Shown here in pieces: positions 2,743 through 39,728 of a stretch of DNA of 43,512 nt. This DNA is from a virus (Duplodnaviria; Heunggongvirae; Uroviricota; Caudoviricetes), in IMG/VR virus record IMGVR_UViG_2563366800_000009, positions 1-43,512 of that record; one strand, 5' to 3'. Both the position numbers and the translations under genes were made by a program. Position 1 is the first letter of the stretch. Each line of letters begins with the position of its first letter. The notes beneath the pieces were generated by a model, which did not search any database, was not told the origin of the DNA, and saw only the letters and a list, made by a program, of their open reading frames with translations.

Positions 2743-4695
2743 CTAACGAAGCCATTGGCTTGGTTTTTGTTTCAGTATATGTATCGCCCCTTGACCGGAA
2801 GCTGCCTGTTGTGCAGTTGCTAGCGTCACTATGTAGGTATTCCCTACTGTTCTTGGTTGAGTAAGGTTAAACTGCAGCGGTGAAGTATCACAGGATATGT
2901 ATTCTATTCCTGAATCAGAAGTCACCTGAAATTCAGTATATAATACACTACCGGAAGAGATAGAAATGTGAATTGCTATCTCACCTCCAGTGTATACAAA
3001 AGGTATACTTGGCATATTTGAAAAATCCTTAAAGTTAAGCATTGACGATGAACTAATAACCTCTTTGCCTACGTCATTAGTAAGTTGAACCGGTTTAGTG
3101 TAATCATAAGCCAGTAGAACGTAATAGTTTACAAAATTTACAAAACTTGAAGACGCCTTTGAAGAGCTATGCCATGTTTTTTTATTGTCCACACGGTATA
3201 TGGATTGGATGTTTAGAAACTCACTTGCCGTTGCTCTTTGCAGTATACCAGTACCTATGCCAAAATGGATATTACCAACGTCAAACACGTGGTCCTCGAC
3301 ATTTCCTGTAGTTGATAATATCGCGATATCAGGCTCTGCACTATCTTCAAGCGCTTCACTGCATTTTTCAAAGTACATAGAACCAACAGACCAACTAACA
3401 GCGTTAACAGTAGCTAAACCAGCGCCTGCTGTGGTTTCAGCTATTAATGTTCCTATTCTTGATGCCAATCCTTGCCCGAGAGTGACACCGGCACCTATGA
3501 GCTGTGGGGTTAAAGATGATGAATACGGATCATACCCATAGGACAAAGATTTTGATGTGTTATACGCAGCGACGACACCAAATTCAACACCATTAACGTT
3601 TACGTCTCCGGTTTCACCGGAGAAACCATGTGCCAAAGAGACACCTCTTGCACAATCAATTCCCATATATTGATTTACTTTATGATACCAACTCCCAAGA
3701 AGTACAATTCCAACTTCTGTGGCATTATAAGCATATATAATGTCTGTGACAGATTCTGCAACTACACCAAAACCATAAAAACCGTAAGGCGCAACATTGT
3801 TAGCATCAATATTTAATGTACCAATGTGCCTAATTCCACGAACTTGTTGTTCAGGCAATGAAAGATCCGGGGATGTTCCTACTGGTTTTTTGCTGGCGCG
3901 AACTACAGCCTTTCCACCCCATGAATAGCCACTCATCGCTTTAATAGTTGCGCCGTTTGTTTCCATCACTAAATACGATGGGATAACAACTTCATCGCTA
4001 ACAAAATATGTACAACCAGGCGTTAACTCAATAAACCCTGTTTTAATTGCCATGTTAATTGCATTTAAACAATCACTTTCAGAATAAGGTTTGGCGCCGA
4101 AGTTCTCTGGGGTGTTTAAGTTAAACCCATTAAGTAGTCCAACGCATATCCAATTATCATCTGGATGGCTTCCAGCATCAACATCATAACCGCCTTCTAC
4201 TATATCTTTCCTGGCATAAAAATACATGTTTCCATCAGGATCGTTATCATAAAGAACAGCATAGCGCTCATCATCAATATGTCCACCTGATGAAAAACTA
4301 ATATCAGACTTAAAATAGAAGTTAAGTCTGAAATGATTTTTTGCCCATACAGAAAATTGATCAGGATCATACTTCAGCACATTCGGAAAATAGAACTGCT
4401 GCGCCCCATACGCATCATAAACAGCCATAGAATGGCCCTGTACAGTAACGAATTTGGCAATCTGTCCGTTATATACCGGATATCCAGCAGCGTTAATGAT
4501 GATTGGCTGCGAAACAGGAACGTGAGAGCCGTCTTCGTTCTCCACATAAACCTGAATCTGGTTTTCAGGATTTACCGGGTCAGTGTCAATTTTACCGATA
4601 TAAATTTTGCCATTGGCAACCGCTTTAAAAGAACGCGCCATAGTGAAGAGTTGCGAAGGCATTGATACGATCACATTGGCTGTAATGTCTGTCAT
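2743..4695 (-). CDS. Tailspike protein; P22-type N-terminal head-binding domain with divergent receptor-binding/enzymatic domain
   Basis: N-terminus [34 protein letters not shown]...[13 protein letters not shown] matches the conserved P22/Sf6/HK620 tailspike head-binding domain; the rest is distinct. Confidence 0.85.
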
Positions 4696-4751
4696 TTAAT
4701 TTGCTCCAGATACAAGGAATCACCGAAGCATGGCTACGATGAATTTTGGGC

Positions 4752-4795: not shown

Positions 4796-5674
4796 TCAGT
4801 AGTTATGTACTGAAGGAGGTAATTCTTTATTCTTAAGTCTCATCCATGCGGAAAGATTCGCTGGTCCGTCTGGCTCATTGATATCAACATCTCGTGTGTG
4901 ATTGATTAAAACGTCTCTCGCCATTCCGATAACATACGAGAATTCATGACCGTAGTCGTAGCATCTGCCGGAATAGTTCGATTGAACTTGTTTTAATGCC
5001 GGATACAGTTCGCGGAATAATGCCTGTGAACGGTTAGCATAATCCCATAGCCATACAAGGCTGTTTGCTTCTTTTGCAGAAAGCTCGTTTGCTTTCTTCT
5101 CTTGTTTGCCGATAAACTCGCCTTCAAGCACTACCCTGTGGATGTACTCTACGGCCAGCGGGATTTGTTCAATTGAAAGTTCATCAATGCTGTCAATACC
5201 AAAACGCTGATGAACCATATTGTATGCATCGTCATAGCGAAGTCCTTTCTTTCCTACCAGCATGTTTACTGCATCGCGTAGCGGCGTTCTTTCCTCAACA
5301 GTGGTTTTCTTGCCTTTCACATACTCGCCATGTTTGCGAATTGAAGGTAGAACTTCTGCTGTTACCCACTTGCGGAATTTGTGCGGGACCGAACCTTTAT
5401 TGACAGCATCGCGGCAGCGCAGAACCAATGTATACATACCTGATTCGCTAACAATGCTTAGATTCTGCTCACCACCAAGGGTGTAACTTAAAGTTACTCC
5501 CTTTTCATCGTCATCAAGTGCAGTAAGCGCCTTGCGTGAGTTAGTCAGGGTTAAAGCATCACAAACATCTTTTGCTACAAACCACGGCTCACCGCATTTG
5601 TTGATGACGCGGATTTCACTGTCGCCGAATTTGAAGATGGTGAAATCGTTTTGTGCCTTTGCTATACTTTTCAT
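4796..5674 (-). CDS. ant: Antirepressor Ant (BRO-N plus antirepressor C-terminal domain)
   Basis: Position downstream of arc as in P22 immI; ATG at 5674 has an AGGAAA RBS; ORF-track start at 5740 is a TTG. Confidence 0.7.
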
Positions 5675-5736
5675 GTCAATATTTCCTAATCCGATTTGTT
5701 GATACCGAAGCCCTGACTGTTCCCGCAGTTGGGGCT

Positions 5737-5910
5737 TCAACTTTTTGCTAGATTACCTTTAGAACTATCCCGCCTTAAACTATCCACTAACCGCATTACC
5801 ATCTCGGTATTTATTGAGCGACCATTTTCTTTCGCTGACTTCTCGATTGCTAACTTAACCTCTAATGGGATGCGCAAAGGGTACTTTGGTGCGTCTGACT
5901 TGACTATCAT
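5737..5910 (-). CDS. arc: Arc-like ribbon-helix-helix repressor
   Basis: [35 protein letters not shown] resembles P22 Arc; GGAGG RBS before the ATG at 5910. Confidence 0.7.
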
Positions 5911-21874: not shown

Positions 21875-22405
21875 TCACACCATCCCGGGCAAATACATTT
21901 GCACTTCATTTGCCGCTCTCTCGCGTGCAACATGAAGCAATCTTTTTCGCCCACCAACGCCCCACTTAGCCATTTGGCTTGCGCACTGGCTTATCGCTTT
22001 GGTTTCAGTATTGATGATGTGATCGATTCTATTCAGACGGGACATTGCGCCAACGCCGAGACGGACAACCGTTTTGAAAACTTCATAAACTTCGATTTCA
22101 AATTCCGGCTTAATCCATGCTGCATATCTGATTGCCAGAAGTTCAACACCCCACACACCTGGTTCTGCACCACCTTTGATTATTTTAAGTGGTTGAATTT
22201 GTTCCAAAGTGCTTTTTTGCACTTTGGCCTCCAGTGCTTTTATGAAGCGTTTTATCTGCGCGCTACGCAAAAACTGGCTTGGGCGCTGTTGCTCTGTAGC
22301 CTCTCCATTTGCAACTGCTGCTGCATGGAGATCGTTTAAGTTGTAGCGTCCATCCTCATCAACACGAACGGACACACCATTGACAATAACTGTTGGGTAC
22401 TTCAT
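21875..22405 (-). CDS. KilA-N domain protein
   Basis: N-terminal region with YNLNDLH-type KilA-N signature; 176 aa. Confidence 0.6.
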   Translation of the reverse strand: MKYPTVIVNGVSVRVDEDGRYNLNDLHAAAVANGEATEQQRPSQFLRSAQIKRFIKALEAKVQKSTLEQIQPLKIIKGGAEPGVWGVELLAIRYAAWIKPEFEIEVYEVFKTVVRLGVGAMSRLNRIDHIINTETKAISQCASQMAKWGVGGRKRLLHVARERAANEVQMYLPGMV

Positions 22406-22750: not shown

Positions 22751-23188
22751 TCATCGAAGGCATTGCGTCCTGATGTATTCCTGCAAGTAGTTAACCTGCG
22801 CGGTTATCCTGTCGATTCCGCTTCGTAGACGGTAATAATTGAGTTCAGCATCTGCTGTAAGTCTTGGGCTTTCTCCATCGCCCATGCTGCTGGCTCCGGT
22901 CGTTGACTTTGCACAGGTGGCGGCGACTTGCAGGCGCTTACGACCAGCAGAAACATCAGCACGGAGACTTTCGATAGTCGCATTAGCATCAGCAAGCTCC
23001 TTTGTGTATCTGGCGTCAAGTTCTGCTACATCACGTTGACGCTTCTGCATGTCAGCGATTGTGGATGCGGCCTTATCGCGCTGCTCTTTGTAGGTCATGG
23101 CGTTATCACGGTAATGATTAACCGCCCATGACAGGCAGACGATGATGCAGATAACCAGAGCGGAGATAATCGCGGTGACTCTGCTCAT
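22751..23188 (-). CDS. Rz: Rz i-spanin
   Basis: N-terminal TM helix then coiled coil; directly downstream of endolysin. Confidence 0.85.
22804..22989 (-). CDS. Rz1: Rz1 o-spanin lipoprotein embedded in Rz in the +1 frame
   Basis: Lipobox-like LLVVSAC followed by Pro-rich segment, nested in Rz. Confidence 0.6.
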
Positions 23189-23661
23189 ACCTCAATCTCT
23201 CTGACCGTTCCGCCTGCTTCTTTGAATTTTGCAATCAGGTTGTCAGCCTTATGCTCGAACTGACCATAACCAGCGCCCGGCAGTGAAGCCCAGATATTGC
23301 TGCAACGGTCGATAGCCTGACGAATATCACCGCGATCAATCATCGGTAAAGCGCCACGCTCCTTAATCTGCTGCAGTGCAACAGCGTCCTGGCTTTTTGG
23401 AGAGAAGTCTTTCAGGCCAAGCTGCTTACGATAGGCATCCCACCAACGTGAAAGAAGTTGGTAACGTCCTGCGGCTGTTGATTTGAGTTTGGGGTTTAGC
23501 GTGACAAGTTTGCGAGGGTGATCGGAGTAATCAGTGAATAGCTCTCCGCCAACAATGACGTCATAACCATGATTTCTGGTTTTCTGACGTCCGTTATCTG
23601 TTCCCTCTGACCATGCCAGCATATCGAGGAACGCCTTACGTTGATTATTGATTTCCACCAT
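23185..23661 (-). CDS. R: Endolysin, lambda R-type lytic transglycosylase
   Basis: [39 protein letters not shown]... essentially the lambda R sequence. Confidence 0.9.
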
Positions 23662-23968
23662 CTTCTACTCCGGCTTTTTTAGCAGCGAAGCGTTTGATAA
23701 GCGAACCAATCGAGTCAGTACCGATGTAGCCGATAAACACGCTCGTGATATAAGCGAGATTGCTACTTAGTCCGGCGAAGTCGAGAAGGTCACGAATGAA
23801 CCAGGCGATAATGGCGCACATCGTTGCGTCGATTACTGTTTTTGTAAACGCACCGCCATTATACCTGCCGCGAAGGTACGCCATTGCAAACGCAAGGATT
23901 GCCCCGATGCCTTGTTCCTTTGCCGCGAGAATGGCGGCTAACAGGTCATGTTTTTCTGGCATCTTCAT
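23645..23968 (-). CDS. S: Holin, lambda S-type
   Basis: [39 protein letters not shown]... essentially lambda S, with dual-start motif. Confidence 0.9.
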
Positions 23969-24210
23969 GTCTTACCCCCAATAAGGGGATTTGCTCTATT
24001 TAATTAGGAATAAGGTCGATTACTGATAGAACAAATCCAGGCTACTGTGTTTAGTAATCAGATTTGTTCGTGACCGATATGCACGGGCAAAACGGCAGGA
24101 GGTTGTTAGCGCAACCTCATGCCACCCGCTTTCACGAAGGTCATGTGTAGAAGGCCGCAGCGTAACTATCACTGATGAATTCAGGATAGCCAGTGGCTAC
24201 GGCTCAGTTA

Positions 24211-24286
24211 TGGTGCTGGTTAACGGACTTGAACCGCTACCCATTCGCTTACAAGGCGACTGCTCTACCATTGGAGCTAAACCAGC
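24211..24286 (-). tRNA. Phage-encoded tRNA-Thr-like gene (anticodon UGU)
   Basis: Cloverleaf read by eye: acceptor GCTGGTT/AACCAGC, D-arm GCTC-CAATGGTA-GAGC, anticodon loop CTTGTAA, T-loop TTCAAGT, discriminator A, CCA; one anticodon-stem mismatch. Confidence 0.6.
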
Positions 24287-24291
24287 ATGTT

Positions 24292-24366
24292 TGGCGGGAC
24301 AGCGTGGACTCGAACCACGATAAGAAGGTTAACAGCCTTCCGTAATGACCTTTATACGACTGACCC
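24292..24366 (-). tRNA. Phage-encoded tRNA-Asn-like gene (anticodon GUU), possibly degenerate
   Basis: Anticodon arm GAAGG-CTGTTAA-CCTTC, T-arm CGTGG-TTCGAGT-CCACG, 3' GCCA; acceptor stem has a T-T mismatch and the D-stem is only 3 bp. Confidence 0.4.
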
Positions 24367-24457: not shown

Positions 24458-24946
24458 CTATGCTACATGTTTAATTTTCTCTACACGTTTCCGGTTTTTA
24501 AACGCACTATCCAGAACTGGGTAAATCATAAACAACGAAGCATTGAGGATTTCGTCAACTTCCCGGCGACAGGTTGCGAGCGATGGTTTTTGAATACGCC
24601 CGCCGCCCCGGCATAACATCTTGCGAGGTCTTGCGACACGATGATAGTAAGATGCAATGGCATGCTTGGAAGATCCATGAGCGTAGTAGCTGAGGAGGAT
24701 GCCAAAGGCTTTCTTGTCAATGCACATGACGGAATCGACGACCTGAGAAATCAACATTCCATCATCATCATTACACATTGGCCTTGTCATAACTCTTCCC
24801 GGCTCTACGCTCTCCATGAACTTCGCTATTACGCTGCTCATGCGCTTTTCCAGACGACCTGAATAAACCCATGCGCCCCACAGTTCAAGCCAGCCATTCA
24901 GCCAATCGTGCTGTTCTTTGGTGAGGTTTATTTCTCTTATGCTCAT
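24458..24946 (-). CDS. Q: Late-gene antiterminator Q
   Basis: WGAW and C-x-DDD motifs resembling Q proteins of the phage 21/933W type; lies between nin region and lysis genes. Confidence 0.7.
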   Translation of the reverse strand: MSIREINLTKEQHDWLNGWLELWGAWVYSGRLEKRMSSVIAKFMESVEPGRVMTRPMCNDDDGMLISQVVDSVMCIDKKAFGILLSYYAHGSSKHAIASYYHRVARPRKMLCRGGGRIQKPSLATCRREVDEILNASLFMIYPVLDSAFKNRKRVEKIKHVA

Positions 24947-27678: not shown

Positions 27679-29217
27679 TTATTCAGTCGGCAGTGCTACG
27701 CGCCAGGGGAGCAGTTCGCCGACCCGGTTTATCGGCCAGTCGGCTATGACGTCAAGGACATAGCGGAGGTAGCTTTCTGGCTCCACTCCGTTCAGTTTGC
27801 ACGTCCCGATCAGGCTGTACAGCAGCGCTCCCCGCTCTCCTCCATGATCCGAACCGAAGAACAGGTAGTTTTTGCGGCCCAGACTGACCATCCGCAACGC
27901 ATTTTCAGCGATGTTATTGTCCGCCTCAGCCCAGCCATCATCTGCATAGTACGTCAGCGCCGGCCACTGGTTCAGGGCGTATGCGAACGCTTTCGCCAGT
28001 TCTGAGTGTCGCGACAGGGTTTTCATCTTTTCACGCAGCCAGCTTTCCAGGGATTTCAGCAGCGGTTTCGTTTTCAACTGACGTTCGGCAAGGCGCTGCT
28101 CCGCCGTCATTCCCCTTATCTCTGCCTCGATGGCGTACAGTTCGCCGATCCGTTTCAGCGCTTCCTCCGTCAGGGCTGACGGGGTGCGAACGTGCACATC
28201 GTGGATTTTACGGCGGGCGTGAGCCCAACAGGCGGCTTCCGTTATCCGGCCATCCCGGTACAGCTCGTTGAACCCGGCGTATGCATCCGCCTGCAGTACA
28301 CCACTGAACCCCGCAAGATGGGTCTGCGGATGGATGCCTTTTCTGTCCGGGCTGTAAGCGAACCACACCGCCGGCGCCAGCGTTGACCCGGCGTTACGGT
28401 CGTCACGAACGTAGGTCCATAACCGCCCGGTCTTCGTTTTCTTATTGCCTGGCAACAGCACCGGGACAGGCGTGTCATCAGCATGGAGCTTACCGTCAGT
28501 CAGCACATAGTCCTGAAGCGCTTCTTCCAGCGGTGACAGTAGCCGGCAGCATGCATCCACCCAGCCCGACAGCAGTGAACGACTCAGCTCCACGCCCTGG
28601 CGGCCGTACATTTCAGACTGGCGGTACAGCGGGGTGTGCTCTGCATACTTTGAGATCAGCACGCGGGCCAGCAGCCCCGGTCCTGCGATACCCCGCTCGA
28701 TGGGCCGTGAAGGCGCGGGGGCCTGCACGATGGCATCGCACTGAGTACAGGCATGCTTTTCACGTACAGTCCGGATAACCCGGAAGACGCTGCGCATCAA
28801 CTCCAGCTGTTCGGCGGCATCCTCACCCAGATAGCTCAGTGAGCCTCCACATTCCGGGCAGCATGACGCTGCCGGCAGCAGCCGTTTTTCATCGCGGGGG
28901 AGTGATTCGGGGAACGGTTTGCGGGTGCGGGTTTGACGCAGCGGGCGCTGCACGGCCGGGGCGTCAACCCGACCGGTAAGGGTATCACTTTCTTTCTGAA
29001 GTGCCTTCAGGTCAGCTTCCATCTGTGCGATACGACGGGAGACTTTTTCGGAGCGGCTGCCGAAGTTCATCCGGCGCAGCTTATCCAGCTGTGCCTGCAG
29101 ATGGTCTATTTCGCGTTCACGCTCGTTCAGCTTTTCCAGCAGGGCACGGTTCAGCGCCTCCTGTTCGGCAAGGAGACGTTTCAGTGCATTGATATCGTCA
29201 GGAAGTGAGCTGCTCAT
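27679..29217 (-). CDS. tnpC: IS66-family transposase TnpC (orf3)
   Basis: 512 aa with coiled-coil N-terminus, CPECG zinc motif and DDE-type core typical of IS66 transposases. Confidence 0.9.
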
Positions 29218-29265
29218 ACCGGGTATATTACCAGGCTCATTCAGCGTCGACCAGGATAAAGAGGC

Positions 29266-29613
29266 TTACAACATAGTCAGGGACGTAAGCAGTCTTTTAG
29301 GCTGCCGCCAGTCGATACCTTCAAGGAGCATCGCCAGCTGTGCCGGTGTGAGGAACACTTTGCCATCCCGGGCTGACGGCCAGGCGAAGCGGCCGCGCTC
29401 CAGCCGTTTGGTCAGCAGACACAGTCCATCGCCGGTAGACCAGAGGAGCTTTACCTGACTGCCATTACGCCCACGGAAGATAAAAACGTGACCTGACATC
29501 GGATCGTCTTTCAGCGTCGTCTGCACCTTTGCCGCCAGGCCGTTGAAGCCATTTCTCATATCGGTGATACCGGCAACCAGCCAAATTTTTGTCCCGGAAG
29601 GTAACGGGATCAT
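29266..29613 (-). CDS. tnpB: IS66-family accessory protein TnpB (orf2)
   Basis: 115 aa, MIPLPSGTKIWLVAGITDMRNGFNGLAAKV typical of IS66 orf2. Confidence 0.85.
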   Translation of the reverse strand: MIPLPSGTKIWLVAGITDMRNGFNGLAAKVQTTLKDDPMSGHVFIFRGRNGSQVKLLWSTGDGLCLLTKRLERGRFAWPSARDGKVFLTPAQLAMLLEGIDWRQPKRLLTSLTML

Positions 29614-30011
29614 CGCTTCAGTTCCTGTATCAGCAGAGTCAGGAGCTTTTCGCTGACATTGCCATTGAAGCGGAGCGTCCCGTGCCGGAACGTTACCTCA
29701 CAGCTGATACTGAGGGTTTTCGGGTCCTCTGCGAGCGATTCTGGCTGTTCGGCAGCTGCATCGAGAGTCACAGGAAGTAGCTGGGGGCTCTCTGAAGAAG
29801 GTAATAGCAGCTTTCCCTCGCGCCATTGTTGTCGCCATTTGAACAACAGATTGGCGTTAATGCCATTTTCAAGAGCAAGTTTTGAGATGGATATCCCGGG
29901 TTCACAGGAGGCAGCAACGAGCTGCTGTTTAAATTCGGGAGGATAATTAGGGCTGCCTTTTCGCCTGCCGGGAGTCACATTTTTCTGCATATCTGACACT
30001 TTGGTTCCCAC
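29610..30011 (-). CDS. tnpA: IS66-family accessory protein TnpA (orf1)
   Basis: 133 aa, overlapping tnpB as in IS66 elements. Confidence 0.8.
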   Translation of the reverse strand: MGTKVSDMQKNVTPGRRKGSPNYPPEFKQQLVAASCEPGISISKLALENGINANLLFKWRQQWREGKLLLPSSESPQLLPVTLDAAAEQPESLAEDPKTLSISCEVTFRHGTLRFNGNVSEKLLTLLIQELKR

Positions 30012-38143: not shown

Positions 38144-38824
38144 ATGGGAACTGCGACATTAATACTCGGTGAGTCTGGCACCGGAAAATCAACCAGCATG
38201 AGAAATATCAATCCAGAGGAAGCAATACTTATAAAACCAATAGGCAAGCCGCTACCATTTAAATCAAAAGAATGGCTGGCATGGGATGCCAGAGCAAAAA
38301 AAGGAACCGTAGTTACCACTGACAAATGGGACGTAATAGTTTCCGTAATTAAGCGTGCTCACGAATACGGGAAAAGAATCGTTATTGTTGATGACTTCCA
38401 GTATGTGATGAGCAATGAGTTTATGCGCCGCTCAGAAGAAAAATCGTTTGATAAATTTACTGAGATAGGCCGCCACGCATGGGAGGTGATTAAGGCTGCA
38501 CAGGATGCACCTGATGACCTGAGAGTCTATTTTCTTGCGCACACCGAAGAAACCCCTATGGGGCGCGTGAAAATGAAAACTATCGGCAAAATGCTGGACG
38601 AGAAAATCACTGTCGAAGGCATGTTTACTATAGTTCTTCGCACTCTTACCCGCGATGACCAGTTCTTTTTCACCACGAAAAACAACGGTGCAGACACTGT
38701 TAAATCCCCAATGGGAATGTTTGATTCCAATGAGATTGATAACGATCTCTCTTTCGTCGATGCCACTGTTTGTGATTACTACGGCATCAATAATGTTCAT
38801 CAAATTAAGGAAAACGCCGCATGA
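38144..38824 (+). CDS. P-loop ATPase, RecA-core-like (Sak4-type recombination ATPase)
   Basis: Walker A GESGTGKST and Walker B IVIVDD. Confidence 0.65.
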   Translation: MGTATLILGESGTGKSTSMRNINPEEAILIKPIGKPLPFKSKEWLAWDARAKKGTVVTTDKWDVIVSVIKRAHEYGKRIVIVDDFQYVMSNEFMRRSEEKSFDKFTEIGRHAWEVIKAAQDAPDDLRVYFLAHTEETPMGRVKMKTIGKMLDEKITVEGMFTIVLRTLTRDDQFFFTTKNNGADTVKSPMGMFDSNEIDNDLSFVDATVCDYYGINNVHQIKENAA

Positions 38825-39408
38825 GCAACGTGATTTTTACTTATAACGAAGAAGCAGCACTGACCGCAGGGCAAGGTGGTTTTATTAACGAAACTGGCGC
38901 TCATATCATTACCATTACTGAAGCAGAACTAAAGCAATCAGAAAAAGGAGCCAAATTTATTGAGTTTTCTGGCGAATCCGACGACGGACGTAAAATCCAA
39001 TATCTTAGCGTCTGTGTTCAGAAAAATGACGGAACGGAAAACAAATTTGGCGCAAATGTCGTTCACGCCATGATGGGGTGTGCCGGGATTGGACAATTAA
39101 CGCAGCATATGGTTTCCGCCAGTAAATTTGTTGCACCTGAATTTCATGGAAAGAAAATCGGGTTAGTGCTTCAGAAAGTATTAACCACAAACAAAAAGAC
39201 TGGCGCAGACAGCTACCAGATGGAAATACGCATCCCGTTTATTGCACAAACAGGTAAAACCCTTAAAGAAAAGGCAGAAGGCAAGCAACCAGAAACTATC
39301 GCCAACATGGTTGCCAATCTCAAAGATAAAGACAATCGCTCTAAAAACGTAAGCCAGAATCATGCAGATGATTATGGTTACAGCCAGAACGATTACCCTC
39401 CTTTCTGA
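38821..39408 (+). CDS. Putative ssDNA-binding protein partner of the ATPase; acidic C-terminal tail ending DYPPF
   Basis: C-terminal tail resembles the SSB DDDIPF-type tip; coupled to the ATPase gene. Confidence 0.45.
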   Translation: MSNVIFTYNEEAALTAGQGGFINETGAHIITITEAELKQSEKGAKFIEFSGESDDGRKIQYLSVCVQKNDGTENKFGANVVHAMMGCAGIGQLTQHMVSASKFVAPEFHGKKIGLVLQKVLTTNKKTGADSYQMEIRIPFIAQTGKTLKEKAEGKQPETIANMVANLKDKDNRSKNVSQNHADDYGYSQNDYPPF

Positions 39409-39431: not shown

Positions 39432-39728
39432 ATGCCAGCGCCTCTGTATGGTGCGGATGACCCGCGCAATTGCTCCGGTAGCTCCAAGGCGGAGGTGCTG
39501 GAAAATATCAAAAACATTTTCGACACGTTTATCGATCTGCCACCAGAAACAAAAGCAGAACGGATGTACCGACGCGATATACAACTCGCGTTAAAAGATG
39601 AGAAGGACCGAACAAACGAAACAGCAATGAGACCGTTGCGAAAAGCGACAATAGACAAATTCCCTGAATATATCGACCCGCGCCTGCGTAATTACCGCTC
39701 ACGCTATGGCGCTATCAGTAATGACTGA
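39432..39728 (+). CDS. Hypothetical 98-aa protein
   Basis: ORF in early-left region. Confidence 0.45.

Follow-up and report, generated by a model that had tools for sequence, protein, structure and literature searches.

Two tRNA-like genes between the late antiterminator gene Q and the holin gene of a P22-like prophage raise the question whether they encode working tRNAs or are remnants, and what a phage would gain from carrying a tRNA-Asn together with a tRNA-Thr. The DNA analyzed, here called the window, is the whole stretch of 43,512 nucleotides of IMG/VR record IMGVR_UViG_2563366800_000009. An original prediction, made from its letters only, regarded the Thr gene as near-canonical and the Asn gene as possibly decaying, and named codon supply and resistance to tRNA-targeting nucleases as other options.

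As argued below, both genes very probably encode functional elongator tRNAs of the late-leader module of phages 21 and Sf6, with a synthesis timed by Q and a role in codon supply as well as in the replacement of host tRNA by nuclease-resistant tRNA. This reading is built on the identity and position of the genes, their conservation and covariation, the codon bias and the published rescue of cells by tRNA-Thr21 of phage 21. While late proteins are made in large amounts, the pair would ensure that the Thr codon ACA and the Asn codons AAC and AAU can still be read. It would do so in two ways that do not exclude each other, i.e., (a) by supply, as the late genes overuse these codons relative to the host, and (b) by replacement, with tRNA-Thr standing in for the single host tRNA-ThrU when it is destroyed by OLD-family Toprim nucleases. 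The pair is already known, since it is annotated in phages 21 and Sf6, and an identical tRNA-Thr was reported in 2025 to act against OLD. What is new is small: a fixed U4·U69 mismatch in tRNA-Asn, a predicted nuclease resistance of this tRNA, and a strongly structured spacer between the pair and the holin gene.

Genomic context

Judged by its sequence, the window is a P22-like prophage, with a tailspike head-binding domain, an antirepressor gene with a sar RNA, and an integrase gene beside a tRNA-Arg(CCU) gene (Table 1). The latter is one of three tRNA genes that ARAGORN found in the window, and its site is presumably an argW-type attachment site, as used by Sf6-like phages. The sar antisense RNA overlaps the start of the antirepressor gene, the product of which contains Bro-N and P22_AR_C domains; this region is an immI region of the P22 type. 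An IS66-family element, consisting of a gene for a 512-aa transposase with IS66 domains and small upstream ORFs, separates the nin region from the replication genes. The products of the early-left operon include a Sak4-like annealing ATPase, an SSB and an anti-RecBCD protein of the Abc2 type. A gene for a KilA-N domain protein is found in the interval from the lysis cassette to the small-terminase region, where CAVP773, the closest relative in E. coli, contains other small genes.

The other two tRNA genes constitute the pair under study. ARAGORN accepted both and returned exactly the predicted coordinates within 24211-24366, with both genes on the minus strand. Their E-values in Rfam RF00005, calculated for the whole window, put both far beyond chance, and their scores (Table 1) exceed the gathering score of 29. 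The pair is flanked by Q and the lysis genes, which is indeed the classic position for tRNA genes in lambdoid phages. At the protein level, Q shows 94% identity to that of phage 21. The first late gene downstream of the tRNA genes is the holin gene, annotated as holin/anti-holin in Sf6. The ORF that follows, for which no Pfam match was obtained, was assigned to an R-type endolysin by synteny.

Table 1. Features of the late-leader region and of other parts of the prophage; positions are those of the window.
Feature	Position	Strand	Basis or remark
tRNA-Arg(CCU)	1009-1083	plus	ARAGORN; adjoins the tyrosine integrase gene
Tyrosine integrase	1209-2402	plus	
Antirepressor	4796-5740	minus	Bro-N and P22_AR_C domains
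sar antisense RNA	5676-5742	plus	Rfam 71.6 bits
KilA-N domain protein	21875-22405	minus	E = 7e-18
Rz	22751-23188	minus	lysis cassette
R-type endolysin ORF	23185-23661	minus	synteny; Sf6 homologue annotated endolysin
Lambda-S-type holin/antiholin	23645-23968	minus	Pfam Phage_holin_3_1 PF05106, E = 2.4e-30
Untranslated spacer, tRNA-Thr to holin dual start (AUGAAGAUG), ~240 nt	23969-24210	minus	folding
tRNA-Thr(UGU)	24211-24286	minus	ARAGORN; Rfam RF00005 61.5 bits, E = 4.7e-11
tRNA-Asn(GUU)	24292-24366	minus	ARAGORN; Rfam RF00005 55.3 bits, E = 2.3e-09
Leader RNA, 50 nt ('aRNA' of phage 21)	24367-24416	minus	phage 21 misc_RNA 4652-4701
tR' intrinsic terminator	hairpin 24414-24376, U-run (U7) 24375-24369	minus	strong hairpin and U7 in the fold
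Late promoter PR' ('pQ promoter' in phage 21)	24427-24453	minus	aligned with the promoter annotated in phage 21
Q, late antiterminator, Q21 type	24458-24946	minus	Pfam Phage_antitermQ PF06530, E = 1.1e-24
IS66-family element	27679-30011	minus	512-aa transposase; small upstream ORFs 29266-29613 and 29610-30011
Sak4-like annealing ATPase	38144-38824	plus	
SSB	38821-39408	plus	
Abc2-type anti-RecBCD protein	39432-39728	plus	phrog_656, E = 6e-44

The late leader and expression of the tRNAs

Read along the minus strand, the proposed module consists of Q21, PR', a short leader RNA, tR', tRNA-Asn, tRNA-Thr, the structured spacer and the holin gene. From the end of Q through both tRNA genes, the window contains only two differences from phage 21, both in the promoter spacer. 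PR', with its -35 box TTGACA at 24451-24446, and tR' were placed by homology to the annotated records of phages 21 and Sf6, and by folding. In the Sf6 record, tR', qut and PR' are annotated at the equivalent place, and the misc_RNA of phage 21 abuts tRNA-Asn, which starts there at position 4702. A generic scan for promoters and terminators called neither PR' nor tR'; PR' was missed because its -10 box is weak.

Both tRNA genes share the strand of Q and lie directly after PR' and tR', ahead of the lysis cassette, as befits members of a late-leader module. The tRNA-Asn gene starts one base past the leader and tR', and the tRNA-Thr gene follows after another 5 nt. This leaves no space for a tRNA promoter, so the tRNAs would be produced essentially only by read-through of tR', i.e., by Q-dependent late transcription. 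From this arrangement and the established knowledge of Q, we infer that antitermination of the Q21 type is needed for expression of the tRNAs in the prophage. RNA polymerase modified by Q would read through tR', and the tRNAs would be made at the onset of late expression. Host tRNA-processing enzymes would then cut them from the late transcript, as general knowledge of tRNA processing suggests. In BTP1, which contains a homologous pair, the start of the lytic operon was mapped immediately downstream of the tRNAs, which were left out of the list of highly expressed genes (PMC7067206).

Structure of the two tRNAs

The tRNA-Asn has a complete conserved core, with U8, A14, G18G19, U33, a GTTCRA T-loop and an encoded CCA end. 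The identity elements for the Asn synthetase are G34, U35 and U36, i.e., the anticodon GUU, and discriminator G73; all of them are present in the sequence, and charging is predicted. Alignment with cmscan revealed a non-standard U4·U69 pair in the acceptor stem and another, U13·U22, which reduces the D stem to 3 bp. The T-T mismatch and the short D stem had thus been recognized correctly.

The description of tRNA-Thr as near-canonical is borne out by its Rfam score, the better of the two, but not by all of its structure. A G27·A43 mismatch atop the anticodon stem, also found by cmscan, leaves a stem of 4 bp, and the conserved core is present except for A14, a nearly universal base in tRNAs that pairs with U8. 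Recognition by the Thr synthetase depends on G1-C72, C2-G71, G35 and U36. These are all found in the sequence, together with A73 and an encoded CCA, and charging is predicted here as well. At position 14 (24273 in the window) the tRNA-Thr has C14, which is U14 in a few relatives. Its 15:48 tertiary pair is A-U, where the host thrU has G-C.

Distribution and conservation

The 168-nt block with the two tRNA genes is 100% identical to that of phage 21 (AJ237660), S135 and several Salmonella and E. coli phages. It is identical also in Sf6, the record of which lists 'tRNA-Asn' and 'tRNA-Thr, similar to phage 21'. In E. coli chromosomes, both genes are annotated by PGAP, and the block was found in 369 of 5,426 complete E. 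coli genomes (about 7%). In addition, 120 IMG/VR loci were recovered with a pattern built on the unusual D arm of tRNA-Asn. The array is Asn-Thr in 96 of these loci and Asn-(thrU-like copy)-Gly(UCC) in 7, and the rest contain Asn-Phe-Thr-Arg(UCU) and variants thereof.

These data bear on the proposal that tRNA-Asn is a decaying pseudogene. The U4·U69 and U13·U22 mismatches and an Rfam score below that of tRNA-Thr would agree with it, but the pattern of variation makes it highly improbable. Across 56 colinear loci, nucleotide diversity was 0.0059 for tRNA-Asn, the lowest of the block, and 0.0100 for tRNA-Thr, as compared to 0.044-0.057 in the adjacent non-coding spacer; both tRNA genes are 4-10 times less diverse than this spacer. 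In 18 distinct IMG/VR variants of tRNA-Asn, 90.2% of the cells were paired, and compensatory double changes were present at five true pairs (5:68, 6:67, 7:66, 28:42, and 29:41). The covariation score was 0.156 vs. 0.062 in shuffles, none of 500 of which reached it, and slid partners scored 0.052 at most. The mismatches are themselves conserved: 4:69 is unpaired in 16 of the 18 variants and 13:22 in all of them, and both are kept across three acceptor-stem haplotypes. Furthermore, GUU, G73 and CCA are intact, the Rfam score is well above the threshold, and the gene is identical in phage 21, Sf6 and ST64T.

Similarly, 94.5% of the cells were paired in 20 variants of tRNA-Thr, with double changes at four pairs and a covariation score of 0.133 vs. 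0.074 in shuffles (0/500), and G27·A43 was unpaired in all 20. Stem covariation together with low diversity indicates that both genes are under purifying selection, tRNA-Asn most strongly. Thus, the irregular pairs, U4·U69 and U13·U22 in tRNA-Asn and G27·A43 in tRNA-Thr, are fixed traits maintained by selection or tolerance and do not reflect decay.

The gene that is degrading in some lineages is rather that of tRNA-Thr. In the ST64T lineage (L007:786-866), the anticodon arm of the Thr homologue is disrupted; this homologue is not called by ARAGORN and scores 42 bits in Rfam, whereas the tRNA-Asn is identical to that in the window. Hence, tRNA-Thr can be lost or remodelled with tRNA-Asn being kept, and tRNA-Thr appears to be dispensable in some hosts.

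A chimeric Thr-like gene was found in eight IMG/VR loci (L019, L042, L089, L091, L100, L108, L109, and L121). It matches the phage gene over nucleotides 1-25 and is thrU-like thereafter, with a 3-bp anticodon stem (ACUGA/UCAUC) in which the 3' CNG is lost. It is not called by ARAGORN, and Gly(UCC) is the next gene downstream. In L119, the phage 5' part is joined to the exact host thrU sequence. Such chimeras point to recombination between phage and host Thr genes.

A possible role in codon supply

The predicted role of the pair in codon supply, for which a comparison of late-gene codon usage had been proposed, is supported in spirit. In 18 late genes (5,762 codons), compared with a host sample of only 31 E. 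coli K-12 genes (12,612 codons), ACA is used 16.3 vs. 4.9 times per 1000 codons, i.e., 3.3-fold more often, which is the second-largest absolute excess of all codons. AAC and AAU together amount to 50.9 vs. 38.5 per 1000, an excess of 12.4. The largest absolute excess in the late genes is that of GGA, which can be read by the cassette partner Gly(UCC), and AGA, readable by the partner Arg(UCU), is enriched 7.6-fold, the second-highest ratio after AGG. These counts fit the classical codon-supply explanation.

Could codon supply be the whole explanation, with any nuclease resistance being an accidental by-product of sequence divergence? The excess of ACA and Asn codons argues for it, as does the capacity of the Gly(UCC) and Arg(UCU) variants of the cassette to read other codons that are enriched in the phage. 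However, host tRNA-Asn, the sole reader of AAC and AAU, is encoded by four genes in K-12 and is not rare; codon supply does not explain an extra phage tRNA-Asn. Moreover, AGA, AGG and ATA are 4.5- to 8.4-fold enriched, yet the phage has no tRNA for these codons, a lack that codon supply does not explain. Considering also the fixed mismatch in tRNA-Thr discussed below, we deem codon supply unlikely to be the sole function.

Nucleases that cut host tRNAs

In P2-lambda interference, the effector is P2-OLD, which cleaves host tRNA-ThrU(UGU) and thereby kills the cell (Govande et al., NAR 2025, PMC12445682). The cleavage sites follow the C of paired CNG motifs in the anticodon stem, at nucleotides 28-30 and 40-42. 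Phage tRNAs of the type Thr(UGU), including tRNA-Thr21 of phage 21, rescue cells from P2-OLD, and for tRNA-Thr21 the rescue depends on the anticodon (PMC12445682). Site 1 of tRNA-Thr21 is hardly cleaved in vitro, a resistance that was credited to its shortened anticodon stem and to altered pairs near the cuts, including C28U/G42A (PMC12445682). The tRNA-Thr of the window has all these features, i.e., the anticodon UGU, a stem shortened at 27:43 and no paired CNG motif. Its stem is GUCGC/GCGAA, with U28-A42 and with CNG on neither strand at 28-30 and 40-42, whereas the host stem is ACUGA/UCAGU. The identity of this tRNA with tRNA-Thr21 was established from the GenBank record of phage 21 and from features described in the main text of PMC12445682.

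Since the features of the stem match the published resistance determinants, the fixed G27·A43 'defect' is most likely functional; small blemishes of a phage tRNA can thus be part of its function. By its identity with the phage 21 molecule, the tRNA-Thr of the window would be a cleavage-resistant substitute for host tRNA-ThrU. The suggested nuclease resistance is therefore supported by published experiments for tRNA-Thr, by way of the identical tRNA-Thr21 (PMC12445682), but for tRNA-Asn it is a prediction.

These observations can be weighed against codon supply as the sole function. A paired CNG motif would be expected, by our estimate, in only ~1/16 of random stems, so its absence is in itself no evidence of selection. 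On the other hand, G27·A43, one of the two published resistance determinants, is fixed in 20 of 20 variants while the neighboring pairs remain paired, and stem shortening with loss of the 3' CNG is seen again in the independent chimeric allele, the thrU-like one. The low frequency of P2 old, which was found in 17 of the 5,426 E. coli genomes (0.3%) as compared to 369 for the tRNA block, is again in favor of codon supply; in any case, P2-OLD alone cannot explain the retention of the cassette. The same applies to the trigger of P2-OLD. Rescue by tRNA-Thr21 was demonstrated with a plasmid-borne tRNA in cells that co-express OLD and lambda Gam; Gam triggers P2-OLD, whereas co-expression of P22 Abc2 with P2-OLD was non-toxic (PMC12445682). 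A search of the prophage for Gam found none; it encodes Abc2 instead, also without Bet and Exo, and the known OLD trigger is thus absent. PADLOC, applied to 10 ORFs in search of a self-encoded tRNase or defense system, returned nothing meaningful.

Another relevant nuclease is AriB of PARIS, likewise an OLD-family Toprim nuclease. Its cuts fall between nucleotides 40 and 41 of the host tRNAs for Lys (UUU), Thr (UGU) and Asn (GUU) and depend on U39, A41 and U16 (PMC12409363). Host Asn(GUU) is also a substrate of P2-OLD, although it is cleaved more slowly than ThrU (PMC12445682). Both enzymes thus attack host Thr(UGU) and Asn(GUU), and this opens the option that the pair is a counter-defense cassette in which both tRNAs are selected for resistance to such anticodon-stem nucleases. 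Both tRNAs of the window differ from those of the host at all three AriB determinants: tRNA-Thr has A16, G39 and G41 (host: U16, U39 and A41), and tRNA-Asn has A16, C39 and U41 (host: U16, U39 and C41). Furthermore, the paired CGG/CCG motif of host tRNA-Asn is absent from the anticodon stem of the phage tRNA-Asn (GAAGG/CCUUC). Phage T5 neutralizes PARIS only with its tRNAs for Lys, Thr and Asn together, and a resistant tRNA-Lys(UUU), the main target of AriB, is necessary for rescue (PMC11464382; PMC12409363).

Against this option, ARAGORN found no tRNA-Lys(UUU) gene in the window, the 120 related cassettes contain none either, and 13 of the 120 Asn copies do contain a paired CNG motif. Outside conserved positions, phage and host tRNAs differ at 24 of 52 sites in Thr and at 33 of 52 in Asn. 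With roughly half or more of the variable sites being different, differences at six chosen sites constitute weak evidence. In addition, the resistance of tRNA-Asn is a prediction, and the tRNA-Asn of P1 keeps the UAAUCA motif. Selection of both tRNAs for counter-defense is, therefore, doubtful. An extended form is more speculative still, and we consider it improbable. It holds that the cassette is a portable, Q-timed counter-defense module directed against P2-OLD, PARIS AriB and their relatives, that tRNA-Asn is a second resistant replacement with U4·U69 and A16/C39/U41 as resistance determinants, and that the spacer releases the tRNAs from the late mRNA. A defense role of tRNA-Asn, and any defense role in this particular phage, are hypotheses. 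They raise the questions whether tRNA-Asn, too, is a resistant replacement, and why the cassette is kept in ~7% of the genomes when P2 old is found in 0.3%.

Nucleases that cut in the anticodon loop were considered as well. Evasion by mutation of the loop, as in the van den Berg type, was rejected, as the loops (CUUGUAA and CUGUUAA) are identical to those of the host. HepS of Gifsy-1 cleaves tRNA-Thr in the anticodon loop with a preference for GGU; the unchanged Thr loop gives no reason to expect resistance to it.

The spacer upstream of the holin gene

The untranslated spacer between tRNA-Thr and the dual start of the holin gene has a minimum free energy of -91.4 kcal/mol, as compared to -61.4 ± 4.7 in shuffles (z = -6.39). 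A consensus of 60 pairs was obtained from 47 IMG/VR variants, with 99.4% of the cells paired. The changes among these 47 variants are all one-sided and wobble-compatible, without compensatory double changes, and the structure is, therefore, not proven. The spacer may act in the release of the tRNAs or in the control of holin translation.

Comparison with known systems

Cassettes with related contents are found in several other phages. In Stx phages, the Q-dependent late transcript includes the tRNA genes ileZ-argN-argO, which follow Q/PR', precede the first late genes and are usually explained as a supply for rare codons. Plunkett et al. reportedly described these genes in 1999 in phages such as 933W. 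The isoacceptors differ from those in the window, as 933W has Ile and Arg tRNAs that read rare codons. Klebsiella-type phage cassettes add Arg(UCU), and in Mulock (L008) the array Asn-Phe-Thr-Arg(UCU) occupies the same late-leader position.

The order Asn-then-Thr is also present in unrelated phages, i.e., Mulock, P1 and N4. P1 (L009), with adjacent trnA-trnT genes, and N4 (L010), with Asn-Ser-Thr-Pro, have the two anticodons of the window in this order, but their tRNA genes are not located in a Q-dependent late leader. The Thr genes of P1 and N4 are about 80-85% identical to that of the window, whereas their Asn genes are of another lineage, with all stem positions paired. Unlike tRNA-Thr of the window, that of P1 keeps a 5-bp stem with a paired CUG/CAG motif. 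G39 is present in all five Thr(UGU) genes compared, i.e., those of the window, Mulock, P1, N4 and T5; the host thrU has U39.

The T5 set (Burman et al. 2024, PMC11464382) shares the isoacceptors Thr(UGU) and Asn(GUU) with the window, and in both phages position 39 of these tRNAs is not U, and the surroundings of the 40|41 cut site as well as U16 are changed. In contrast to T5, the window has no tRNA-Lys(UUU), the sequences are only distantly related, and resistance to AriB is predicted. Of the tRNA-Thr reported to rescue cells from P2-OLD (tRNA-Thr21 and tRNA-Thr6; PMC12445682), the window shares the sequence of tRNA-Thr21, including UGU, the 27:43 mismatch and C28U/G42A. Whereas the published rescue was obtained with a plasmid-borne tRNA in the presence of OLD and Gam, the prophage has Abc2, and its tRNA would be expressed late.

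The closest counterparts are the pairs of phages 21 and Sf6, which have the same 168-nt block, position, gene order and 5-nt spacing as the window. The pair is also present in BTP1, SPN9CC, SfI, HK446 and many E. coli prophages. With respect to phages 21 and Sf6, the tRNAs of the window are no different, but the surrounding mosaic is: the Q allele is Q21-like in the window and diverged in Sf6, and in the window this module is combined with lysis genes of the lambda-S type and with P22-like virion genes.
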